The notes beneath the pieces were generated by a model, which worked only from the letters and a program-made list of their open reading frames with translations, did not search any database and was not told the DNA's origin. This document shows, piece by piece, positions 3,901 through 8,030 of a DNA stretch of 64,000 nt. Positions within the stretch are counted from its first letter, which is position 1; each line of letters opens with the position of its first letter. Where the stretch lies: positions 27,090 to 91,089 of the forward strand of contig CAXHJY010000869.1 of assembly GCA_964016885.1 (NCBI GenBank), in the 5' to 3' direction. The position numbers were made by a program, and so were the translations under genes. The stretch comes from Eledone cirrhosa. Taxonomy: Eukaryota.

Positions 3901-4379
3901 ATATATATTTCTCTTACTTTCTTTCGTCCCCTCTGTCATGTCAGTTAACACTTTCTCTCTACTGACCTCTTCCTCACACTTCCACTCACTCACTGTTTCT
4001 CCCCTTCTCACCCCCCCCCCCCCCGTTCGCGACGTTAACGATTCCTTCTTTCTTACATCGGATTCATTTCGAAAGGTCTATTTTCTACTCGCTCATATAT
4101 TCACCCAGCTTATACTGATAGAATAACTATGTAGCTTGTGTCTTTTCCTATCTTCGGTTATCTTTCCTCTATGTTGTTTACTTGTCTCACTCGCTTTACG
4201 CGTTTTAATTGTCCTAATAACTTATTTTAGTTATTATTGCGCCAACGTGAGGTATATGATTTTTAATGCAATGAAATACCTATGACCGTTGGTAAATCAC
4301 TGATGAGGGACTCATTTTATAACATGTTATCCATGTGCAACCATGCAGTATTCTTCTCCCCATTTTTTCATATATATAT

Positions 4380-4746
4380 ATATATACATTCATATATATA
4401 TAGCTATTTCAGAGCACCAATTCTAATTTTCAATTTCTGCTTGACCGGCAACCGCTCTGTATAATCAGTTCCTGATTATTTACTAGAATTCTATAAGAAC
4501 CAAACATCCATGATTTCAGCAAACAGGAGGAGTAGTCGGCTTTGATAAGCATCAATAAATGCGAAACAAGGCCTTGTCAGCTTTATCTCCCCTGTTTGCT
4601 GAAAATTAAAGTAAGTGAGCCTGTCACTACACTAAAACAATAGCATAAGGTCTTCGAAATGCTTTTAATTAAGCATACAGTGTATTGCAAAATACACTAT
4701 ATATACATTCATATATATATAGCTATTTAAGAGCACCAATTCTAAT
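4380..4746 (+). mobile_element. Penelope-like pLTR fragment with a terminal direct repeat
   Basis: atacattcatatatatatagctattt.agagcaccaattctaat at about 4384 and about 4703; 4473-4696 is homologous to 5578-5760. Confidence 0.65.
4514..4604 (+). ncRNA. Type I hammerhead ribozyme, U3-A8 core variant, long helix I
   Basis: gct-TTGATAA-gcat(caataa)atgc-GAAA-caag(gc)cttg-TC-agc; distal helix I tttcagcaaacagg 4514-4527 pairs with cctgtttgctgaaa 4591-4604. Confidence 0.85.
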
Positions 4747-4891
4747 ATATATATATATATCATAAAACATGTCTATAGAATCACAAGATAAAATATATAC
4801 TATTTATATATATATATGTATATATATGTGTATATAATAGAAAAAAACGGGTAAGTTTCGTTTACATATGAAAAATATTTATTGCGTATCG

Positions 4892-4967
4892 ACCTGTTAC
4901 GCGCGTTTCGCACAGGATTGGCTCAAGGTGACACATTGGAGAGTATCGATCTGCTCCTCAGACTGGT
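4892..4967 (-). ncRNA. Type I hammerhead ribozyme
   Basis: Minus strand: accagt-CTGAGGA-gcag...ctgtgc-GAAA-cgcgcg-TA-acaggt, followed by AATAAA. Confidence 0.7.
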
Positions 4968-5541
4968 GATGCGACAAATGATATAGTTTAGTTGTGGTAT
5001 GTGGGCCGAGAAGGTATATATATATAGAAAGAGGCATTGGCTCTATTTTTTTATGTGCTGTGTGTATTTTGGTGCAATTGGTGGCGTATGAATGCAGGTG
5101 TGTATTCACCGATATTCATGTGCGTGTTTACGTGAGCGCGCTAGCAATTAATGAATCGTGTTTGTATATATTGGAATGATTTTAAGCCCTACGGCTGAGG
5201 TCTTGCTGCTTTGACTACATGTAGGTAACTAGGGCAGAAAATAATTATAATACCTAGACTATTCTTTCTTAGATATCCTGTACTAAGCTGAACAATTGTT
5301 TCACTGTTCTTGACTAGTATCTCCCTATCTGTCTGTCTATCTGTATATTTATCTCTCGGCCTCTCTTTCTCACTTTCTCTCTCTCTCGTCCTCTCTCTCA
5401 CTCTCCCTTTTTCTCCCCCTCTCTCCCTTTCTCTCTCTCACTTTCCCTTCTCTCTCACTCTCTCTCTCTCTCTCTCTCTCTTCCCGTTCTCACTTTCTCT
5501 CTCTCGCTTTCACTGTTTCTCTCTCACCCCCCCCTCTTTCT

Positions 5542-5579
<38 letters not shown>

Positions 5580-5639
5580 ATTATTACTGGAACTCTATAA
5601 GAATCCAACACACATAATTTTCAGCAAACAGGGGTGGTG

Positions 5640-5684
5640 AACTTTGATAAGTACCAAAAAGTACGAAACAGTGCTCTGTCAGTT
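5640..5684 (+). ncRNA. Type I hammerhead ribozyme, U3-A8 core variant
   Basis: aact-TTGATAA-gtac(caaaaa)gtac-GAAA-cag(tgct)ctg-TC-agtt. Confidence 0.85.
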
Positions 5685-5843
5685 AAAACATGATTTTAAA
5701 ACAATAGCGTATGGTCTTCAAAATGCTTTTAATTAAGCATACAGTGTATTGCAAAATACAAAATATTGATGAACATTACAACCCCTAGAGGTGAACTAGC
5801 TTACTAATTTAGAAGGGCCCTAGATAAACTTAAACTAAATATT

Positions 5844-6273
5844 AAGATACTGGAAAGACCAGGTACCTCCATAAAAACACTTATTAATAATACATACTCT
5901 TTTCAAAGACCTCTCTGTATAGATAGGAAATGCATAATCTGTAAACTAGGCCCCCATATTAACTGTAAAACTAGAAACATAGTATATATCATAGGATGTA
6001 CTGAGGGGCAATGTAAAGATGAGAATATAATGTACATAGGTGAGACAGCTCGTAGCATAGGAGAACGATTAAATGAACACTGGCGAGAACTCCGAGATAG
6101 AAAAGACTCATAAGTACTCCACCAACATGCTAAAATAGAACATAAGGGCAAACTAGAGAACATAGAAATAAAAATAAAATCTACATACAGAAAAGACAAT
6201 GTTTAGACAAATCACAGAGGCAATAAACATAAATGAACTCCAACCGAAATTAAATAGAAAACATGAATGGAAT
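5844..6273 (+). pseudogene. Penelope-like element GIY-YIG endonuclease C-terminus (one stop, one frameshift)
   Basis: Manual translation: CIICKLGPHINCKTRNIVYIIGCTEGQCKDENIMYIGETARSIGERLNEH...HQHAKIEH...RQITEAININELQPKLNRKHEW; not in the supplied ORF track. Confidence 0.9.
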
Positions 6274-6685
6274 AGCAACATCACAACTTACAATTAAGGA
6301 CAAAATGAAAACACACACACATAGAACAAACAACCAACCAGTAACATGTAAAGAAACAAATAAATAAACAAATAAAAACACACACAGACACCCGGATGTA
6401 ACACATGCGCAAACTAAGCACACAACACACACAAAAACAAGATGGCGTAGGACAGAACAAAGGAGAGGCACAACACAAACAAAAGAATCCCCAGTCACTG
6501 AAGAGGTCACATAATGTGTGACAAAAGAACTTTGAGAATATATGAACAACCGTCCGGTGGTGGAACCAACCAACCAACCGGAAATTTATAAAAAATTTTA
6601 AATTTATAATTTAATTTATAATAAATTGAAGTGAAAGCAACTGGTGCATGTGTTTCTTATTGGCAACATGACCCTCCCAAAGTAT

Positions 6686-6782
<97 letters not shown>

Positions 6783-6926
6783 GAGTATATGTTGGTTGTA
6801 TACCAGTTGGTTGTATTCCAGTTCCTCAGAGAAATAACAACCCAACCAGGAACTGGACATTTCAGAGTATTGACAAAATCATACACCTCAACAACATATG
6901 TACTTGTCTATACCACACTAATTCAA

Positions 6927-7329: not shown

Positions 7330-8030
7330 GACTGAGAGTACAATCCACACACCCCTGGACAGGATAGCAGTCCATCGCAGGGTTAAACCACCAGCTATTG
7401 CTGGCATTAATTTTCAGTTGAGTATACTGGAGCAACGGGAAATGAAGCGTTTTGCTCAAGAACACAACATAAAAAACTAGCCCAGGAATAGAACCCGTGA
7501 CATTATGATCGTAAGTCCATCACTTAACCATTGGAGTGACATGAAATGAAGTGTTTTGCTCAAGAACACAACATAAAAATTAGCCCAGGAATACAACCTA
7601 AGACAGTATCATTGTAAGTCCAACACTTTACCACTGGTGTGACATGAAATTACCGTATTTCCCAGCGCCGAAGATGCTTCGTCCTCGAGGACGCACCCTA
7701 ATTTTGACAACCAAAAGTTTGAAAAAAAATAATAAACAACTTTCGGCCTCCAGGACGCATAGAAGATTTTTGATACTTAGTTTAGGAAAAAAAGTAGCGT
7801 CTTTGGCGCCGGGAAATGCGTTTTGTTTTGCTCAAGAAAACAACACAACAACCGGCCCAGGAATCGAACCCACGACATTATGATCGTAAGTCCAACAACC
7901 TTACCACTGGAACAACATGAAATGAAGTGTTTTGCTTAAGAAAACAATACAACACGCAGCCCAGGAATCGAACCGACGACATTGTGATCGTAAGTCCAGC
8001 TCATTTACCGAGCCACGCGGCCCCACACGA
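7330..8030 (-). mobile_element. tRNA-derived CORE-like SINE with its 5' part tandemly repeated about 4 times
   Basis: Repeated ttttgctcaagaacacaac...ccaggaatcgaaccc (reverse of B box ggttcgattcc and the cttgagcaa motif). Confidence 0.75.
7653..7820. mobile_element. Tc1/mariner(pogo)-like MITE nested in a SINE
   Basis: TIRs ccgtatttcccagcgccgaagatgc / gcgtctttggcgccgggaaatgcg; TA on the left. Confidence 0.7.

Follow-up and report, generated by a model that had tools for sequence, protein, structure and literature searches.

Two copies of a U3-A8 type I hammerhead with a palindromic helix III in a high-copy repeat: a predicted dimer-dependent ribozyme of likely Penelope ancestry

The window analysed here, a whole stretch of 64,000 nucleotides, carries on its plus strand two type I hammerhead motifs with a U3-A8 core, which start at 4542 (copy 1) and 5644 (copy 2) and were located by BLAST and by descriptor search. 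In our judgement each is probably a separate insertion of a roughly 320-nt, high-copy repeat with a U3-A8 type I hammerhead fold, likely a Penelope-derived element of the terminal-repeat or retrozyme-like kind, whose RNA is predicted to cleave itself after GUC mainly as a dimer. The motif is real and conserved. Copy 1 is structurally intact but solitary, while copy 2 is likely dead.

The hammerhead motifs

Copy 1 reads ggct TTGATAA GCAT-CAATAA-ATGC GAA ACAAGGCCTTGT C agct, with C17 at 4578, and copy 2 reads aact TTGATAA GTAC-CAAAAA-GTAC GAA ACAGTGCTCTGT C agtt, with C17 at 5680. Their parts are as follows.

4514-4604, plus strand: extended type I hammerhead of copy 1, from folding and alignment
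4542-4548, plus strand: core of copy 1, U3-U4-G5-A6-U7-A8-A9, with no variant at 4542 or 4547 among the best 40 of 62 variant rows
4549-4562, plus strand: helix II of copy 1, 4 bp with a G10.1-C11.1 pair and the 6-nt loop CAAUAA; pair probabilities 0.87-0.99
4566-4577, plus strand: helix III of copy 1, a perfect 12-nt palindrome and predicted dimer interface; predicted cut after C4578
4514-4527 with 4591-4604, 4529-4532 with 4587-4590, and 4538-4541 with 4579-4582, plus strand: helix I of copy 1, made of a distal helix, a 4-bp helix and a proximal helix, with an internal loop
5640-5684, plus strand: hammerhead of copy 2, with core 5644-5650, helix II 5651-5664, helix III 5668-5679 and a predicted cut after C5680

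The general hammerhead core (N3-UGAN-N8-A, GAAA, an NUH site and a pairable 3/8 couple) is present in both copies, in the form of U3-A8 and GUC. The topology is that of type I, since three helices surround the core, helix I is open-ended and the arrangement is backed by covariation. A strict descriptor, which demands the U3-A8 core together with three stems of 4 bp or longer, finds exactly two matches in the window, namely copies 1 and 2, and none in any of 300 dinucleotide shuffles of the window made in 500-nt blocks. The UUGAUAA cores that the sequence-only reading of this DNA had reported are thus borne out by the letters and by these shuffles, and the GUC sites that it had named at 4578 and 5680 are in place; the cuts there are predicted. 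Neither BLAST nor a two-sequence covariance model detects further copies of the repeat in the window. The Rfam model Hammerhead_HH9, whose gathering score is 52 bits, responds weakly to both copies, with 20.9 and 20.1 bits (E 0.074 and 0.13), and no Rfam match anywhere in the window, hammerhead sites included, reaches the gathering score.

Covariation between the two copies

Over the ribozyme part the two copies share 76% identity. The 45 nt that run from one strand of helix I to the other hold 12 changes. None of the 12 falls in the 12 constrained core positions, one lies in loop 2 and 11 are in stems. Of 13 pairs counted, four have both partners changed (two of these in helix II) and one has a single partner changed. 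One pair no longer forms, the innermost of helix III, which would close a 2-nt loop; the count that accompanies the random placement below has no broken pair. When 12 substitutions are placed at random with the observed transition bias, at least four double changes arise with P ~2e-4. With the core fixed and helices II and III alone considered, the same kind of null gives P ~3e-3. The identity of all 12 constrained core positions, including the A15.1-U16.1 pair and C17, has P ~0.012. The pair-counting tool's own shuffle gave 35/500, a figure that is uninformative with two rows.

Less weight can be put on the compensatory pair of helix I in copy 2 than on those of helices II and III, because the 3' strand of this helix abuts a deletion junction marked by an 8-nt direct repeat; the double change there may be partly accidental. 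The earlier claim that all three stems differ between the copies and still pair stands, except that the strands it gave for helix III, caag and cttg, cannot fully pair in a hairpin.

U3-A8 as a compensatory pair, and selection on the stems in the source family, are supported by these data. The proposal that C3U and G8A compensate one another finds support in the covariation as well as in the family variants described below. The selection had also been assigned to a parent Penelope family. Covariation and variants uphold the part about stem selection; the part about a Penelope parent goes further than what the window offers, which is adjacency to a GIY-YIG fragment.

One could suppose that the motifs are chance matches, or CUGAUGA cores that decayed independently, given the sub-threshold Rfam scores and the fact that each of the two core changes is a transition. 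The 300 shuffles without a match and the covariation argue against this, as does the absence of C3 or G8 from the best 40 of 62 family variant rows, and we regard the idea as largely refuted and very improbable.

The repeat family in public sequencing runs

The family was surveyed through contigs of four public runs, out of 13 listed, that match 4200-4745 at 80% identity or more; eight public runs cover part of the stretch. Run X1 contributes 3,716 contigs on 4200-4745 and the three other runs 70, 10 and 3, figures that must be read with the provisos that contig depth is not copy number, that the contigs are DNA-type and that the window itself may derive from the run with the most contigs. With contigs in the thousands and varied in sequence, the repeat is nonetheless a large family.

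No reversion to C3 or G8, at 4542 or 4547, is found among the best 40 of 62 variant rows; the rows outside these 40 include 5 of the 10 T>C and 2 of the 6 A>G places in X1. A C3-G8 majority is unlikely because the best-supported variant rows are those within the 40, and a minority C3-G8 subfamily is possible. The sole X8 contig over the core keeps A8, as all three A>G rows of X8 fall elsewhere. U3-A8 thus looks like the family norm, and the CUGAUGA family consensus that the sequence-only reading had set as its own refutation is not seen among the best 40 of the 62 rows.

Part of the unit (4407-4474) is common to another repeat family, as sequences from three runs leave the unit after 4474 and all continue into one and the same other sequence. 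A second hammerhead at about 4632-4686 was considered and rejected: it has no CUGANGA box, and the G of its GAAA (4656) is A in 50% of the X1 depth and in copy 2.

Helix III as a predicted dimer interface

What had been described as a caag/cttg stem is half of a perfect 12-nt palindrome. The paired strands of that description exist, while the palindromic dimer anatomy had been overlooked. By folding, 4566-4577 of copy 1 forms a self-duplex of -19.5 kcal/mol and no stable hairpin.

The family varies at four positions of this palindrome, each change being present in roughly a third of the X1 depth (A4569G 34.5%, G4570A 32.7%, C4573T 36.4%, T4574C 37.6%; 35-44 contigs each). Combined, the four would give a second perfect palindrome. 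They are linked in one contig, which also carries the 3' strand of helix II of copy 2 and, in addition, a change whose result is a G-U pair; the linkage is read from this contig, as the variant table holds none. Positions 4570 and 4573 enclose two nucleotides, so that their complementarity is usable only between two molecules. The covariation thus appears to point directly to pairing in a dimer, through a base pair that is impossible in a hairpin.

Copy 2 has three of the four changes and a different base at the fourth, so that its helix III (5668-5679) is a palindrome with two mismatches. The idea of copies 1 and 2 as a working heterodimer was dropped, since they are 76% alike and their helix III heteroduplex reaches -6.5 kcal/mol versus -19.5 for the self-duplex of copy 1.

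Folding of the monomer and the dimer

As a monomer, copy 1 is not predicted to adopt the hammerhead fold, which lies at -33.4 kcal/mol, 6 kcal/mol above the minimum of -39.4. In that minimum, a 7-bp helix of 4538-4544 with 4567-4573 buries U3-U4-G5, and in the ensemble the pair probabilities of hammerhead helices I and III are 0.01 or less. In the dimer, the double hammerhead is computed at -87.1 kcal/mol, against -87.3 for the free dimer minimum and -78.8 for two monomers, all of these being nearest-neighbour energies that ignore concentration and tertiary contacts and treat junctions crudely. If the distal helices are omitted, the double hammerhead lies above the best dimer fold by 4.8 kcal/mol for copy 1 and by 7.2 for the copy 2 core.

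These predictions suggest a sequence of events. A single copy would misfold through the 7-bp helix just described. In a head-to-tail transcript, the two palindromes would instead join in a shared 12-bp helix III, and the double hammerhead, being about as stable as any dimer fold, is predicted to permit cleavage after GUC. By analogy with published systems, cleavage would free unit-length RNA, which a Penelope-like reverse transcriptase and endonuclease would copy back into (TA)n tracts.

Alternatively, the U3-A8 hammerhead might act as a monomer, with a 4-bp helix III hairpin closed by a GGCC loop and a contact between loop 2 and the internal loop of helix I, the palindrome being incidental; this is the rival closest to the sequence-only reading. 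It fits the 4-bp helix II, whose 6-nt loop starts with CAA and ends with A in all three versions seen, and the internal loop of helix I, closed by long helices, features that resemble canonical type I ribozymes. Fungal Penelope-like hammerheads with a large helix III are also described as cleaving as monomers by Cervera and De la Pena 2014 (PMC4209133). Against it are the negligible probabilities of helices I and III in the monomer ensemble, the family variation that preserves complementarity at a pair impossible in the hairpin, and a proximal helix I of 4 bp instead of the 6 bp of canonical type I ribozymes. We consider this unlikely, and return to the dimer.

The blocking helix is strong in copy 1 (-8.3 kcal/mol) and is lost in copy 2 (-0.9). 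G4538A is found in 39.5% of the depth and, together with the second version of helix III, would keep all seven pairs of the blocking helix; the off state may thus itself be selected. This leads to a bolder and rather doubtful picture, that of an animal retrozyme family whose U3-A8 hammerhead would have a built-in switch: the palindrome would block the monomer or circle, and in tandem transcripts a swap of partners would turn cleavage on.

Catalysis could also have become negligible. The U3-A8 version would then be a former hammerhead whose pairing is kept for RNA dimerisation or for recognition by an element protein. U3 and A8 do favour competing folds in copy 1, and metazoan Penelope hammerheads are reported as weak in vitro, with other functions left possible, in PMC4209133. 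Yet all 12 core positions are the same while 12 of 45 sites differ (P ~0.012, as above), and U3-A8 ribozymes are stated to be active in vitro by Perreault et al. 2011 (PMC3088659), who cite other work on this point. We find loss of catalysis quite unlikely, and prefer cleavage in the dimer.

The distal part of helix I

Folding confirms the 14-bp distal helix of copy 1, in which 4514-4527 pairs with 4591-4604 (fold z -6.1). It had been put forward as a possible source of the tertiary contact; by analogy, it would merely close the internal loop, which is the part that makes tertiary contacts in type I hammerheads. Copy 2 keeps the 5' arm of this helix (5615-5634) and has lost the 3' arm. Since its 5' arm complements the 3' arm of copy 1 at 20 of 20 positions, the distal helix of the family was perhaps once about 20 bp long. 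In the paired stretch of the distal 5' arm, three of four transition rows (4520, 4522 and 4525) leave G-U pairs, while the fourth, at 4515, breaks its pair; this is consistent with selection and is not significant.

The repeat unit and its surroundings

The unit and its neighbours comprise the following features.

4401-4719, plus strand: repeat unit with copy 1, 319 nt, 35% G+C
4379-4427, plus strand: first copy of a 49-nt direct repeat, which opens the unit; TA-rich in its 5' half and identical to 4698-4746 at 48 of 49 positions
4698-4746, plus strand: second copy of the direct repeat, 319 nt downstream, giving a terminal redundancy
4659-4676 and 4680-4697, plus strand: two adjacent hairpins near the 3' end of the unit, the second with a GCAA loop; 93% identity with copy 2 over 70 nt
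5578-5766, plus strand: copy 2 of the repeat, which starts after a (TA)n tract and has lost the distal 3' arm
5760-6300, plus strand: C-terminal remnant of a Penelope-like ORF, in decay, that still shows a CX4CX2C linker and GIY-YIG and abuts copy 2

With its 319 nt, 35% G+C and non-coding content, the unit lies within the range of retrozymes (about 170-400 nt, G+C below 45%). It sits among (TA)n tracts, and the host genome appears to be AT-rich and microsatellite-rich. The window holds one unit plus 49 nt and no tandem array; head-to-tail joints occur elsewhere, as two single contigs of low depth (4739->4419 and 4742->4433), such as tandem units would give. The hairpin at 4680-4697 (plus strand) has 7-8 bp and a loop of the GNRA type, and lies where contig coverage of the family is highest. 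It could be an element recognised during reverse transcription.

Each copy represents an insertion of its own, from a different subfamily, and the two do not form the ends of a single element. A reading of them as terminal repeats of one element was rejected, given that they are only 76% alike and that no ORF of at least 120 aa lies between them.

The ORF fragment has stops at 5805 and at about 6111 and one frameshift. Pfam GIY-YIG scores 21.5 bits on it (E 3e-4), just under the cutoff of 22.6. Among 55 candidate proteins it matches one only (P0001, 45% identical), on which no Pfam family is detected. Craig et al. describe a CX4CX2C linker in Neptune and Nematis, an insertion bias towards (TA)n in related elements, and tails of 30-40 bp. 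Local alignment of the fragment's own 3' region (6300-6670) with the 319-nt unit scores within the range of shuffles, and on the same ground we discarded the idea that the unit is related in antisense to the 3' region of the GIY-YIG element. With the fragment's 3' region unlike the unit, our inference of a Penelope origin draws on adjacency, the target site and published work.

Relation to known hammerheads

U3-A8 cores, palindromic helices for dimers and the tie to Penelope-like repeats are all found in earlier papers. Lunse et al. are also said to have worked on dimeric Penelope hammerheads. Perreault et al. 2011 (PMC3088659) note that in several natural hammerheads the C3-G8 pair is replaced by U3-A8 through covariation, and describe a palindromic stem III for dimers. 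The compensatory 3-8 change is the same as here; the passages concerned give no animal repeat family context. Cervera and De la Pena 2014 (PMC4209133) found the U3-A8 variant through Cercyon of Schistosoma mansoni, with about 1,300 hits. Their Fig. S3 contains a Schistosoma family, Sm(3), with UUGAUAA and a 4-bp helix II. The same paper reports a 10-nt palindromic helix III in other animals, and a minimal motif that was low in activity and dimer-dependent when assayed. Non-LTR retrozymes of 170-400 nt were defined by Cervera and De la Pena 2020 (PMC7229834), who also describe mussel retrozymes without most of the contact residues, and Li et al. (bioRxiv 10.64898/2026.07.22.740005) derive retrozymes from Penelope terminal repeats.

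The closest parallel is provided by the minimal hammerheads of S. mansoni Cercyon, which share with the present copies the type I fold, U3-A8, the G10.1-C11.1 pair, a palindromic helix III, a predicted action as dimers and mostly solitary copies. Unlike them, the present copies have no extra nucleotide after A9, their helix III palindrome measures 12 nt instead of 4 nt, and helix I runs through an internal loop into a distal helix of 14-20 bp. Helix II also differs: it has 4 bp here, whereas in the 2014 consensus it is usually long (7-8 bp in S. mansoni). The alignment in PMC4209133 includes exceptions both to the extra nucleotide and to the long helix II. Measured against the description of Penelope minimal hammerheads, the present copies have the G10.1-C11.1 pair and the palindromic 15.2-16.2/loop 3, while an extra nucleotide between A9 and G10.1 is missing and the helix II of 4 bp is not long.

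The Penelope-type motifs of Aedes aegypti, Saccoglossus and Drosophila resemble ours in having a palindromic stem-loop III, all of which is paired in a dimer (10 bp in Aedes), and one Saccoglossus motif, like ours, has no extra nucleotide after A9 (PMC4209133, Fig. S3; PMC3088659, legend of Fig. S8). These motifs are C3-G8, however, whereas here the long palindrome is combined with U3-A8. Metazoan non-LTR retrozymes share the non-coding unit of about 320 nt, the low G+C, the single type I hammerhead and the 4-bp helix II; solo monomers are common among them, and an origin from Penelope terminal repeats has been proposed. The present repeat differs from them in the lack of a tandem array in the window, the U3-A8 core and the longer helix III, and in being known from DNA alone. 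The canonical type I retrozyme fold combines a loop-loop contact with helices of 6 bp (I), 4 bp (II) and 1-2 bp (III); of these lengths the present repeat has that of helix II, its proximal helix I having 4 bp and its helix III 4-6 bp.

The ribozyme thus resembles published Penelope and retrozyme hammerheads and fits neither consensus exactly, because of the missing nucleotide after A9, the longer palindrome and the long distal helix. Judged from the predicted folds, it is most likely a U3-A8 hammerhead that depends on dimer formation, in a retrozyme-sized repeat of Penelope descent. No published description of this repeat family was found in the literature searched, which consisted mostly of sources other than subscription journals. 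All the ingredients are in print, except possibly their combination and the predicted self-blocking fold of the monomer. The family adds a well-supported natural U3-A8 hammerhead to a known picture that is otherwise unchanged, and provides a convenient test RNA for the role of hammerheads in Penelope-like elements.

Other hammerhead-like motifs and repeats

A pattern scan of metagenomes yielded 31 loci, none of which belongs to the studied family by BLAST, and viral contigs gave no match to the repeat. Only one locus (L002) has a near-complete fold; the model E-values of these loci are inflated because the loci had been picked by the pattern. L002 (1466-1575) and L016, at a contig end, are unrelated DNA with U3-A8, a 4-bp helix II, a CAAAAA loop, a palindromic helix III and a changed U16.1; the two are 81% alike over the motif and have a second region in common.

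A looser descriptor detects in the window six more hammerhead-like motifs with C3-G8 and one more U3-A8 candidate. The latter (55346-55381, plus strand) has a UUGAAAA core, a 4-bp helix II with a G-C closing pair, a 6-nt palindromic helix III and a 3-bp helix I; it lies just before an A-rich and (TA)n tail and shows no similarity to the studied family. C3-G8 hammerheads with an AU-palindromic helix III are found at 17949 and 6932 on the plus strand and at 44106, 54003 and 23057 on the minus strand. These five are short units in or near (TA)n, and three of them are closely related. Another C3-G8 hammerhead (34418-34476, minus strand; model E 1.6) has a 5' flank and helix III ends as in copy 1.

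The DNA upstream of the unit (4200-4350) is a separate, heavily covered high-copy module with a CTGATGA box at 4300 and no GAAA downstream. On the minus strand of this module, 32 nt match 6859-6890 with a score above 200 of 200 shuffles. In the 3' region of the GIY-YIG fragment (6498-6540, plus strand) lies a decayed hammerhead-like motif with a CTGAAGA box and a hairpin, its GAAA being altered. Further on, at about 7400-8000, a SINE-like repeat about 110 nt long is present as several tandem copies that have diverged from one another.
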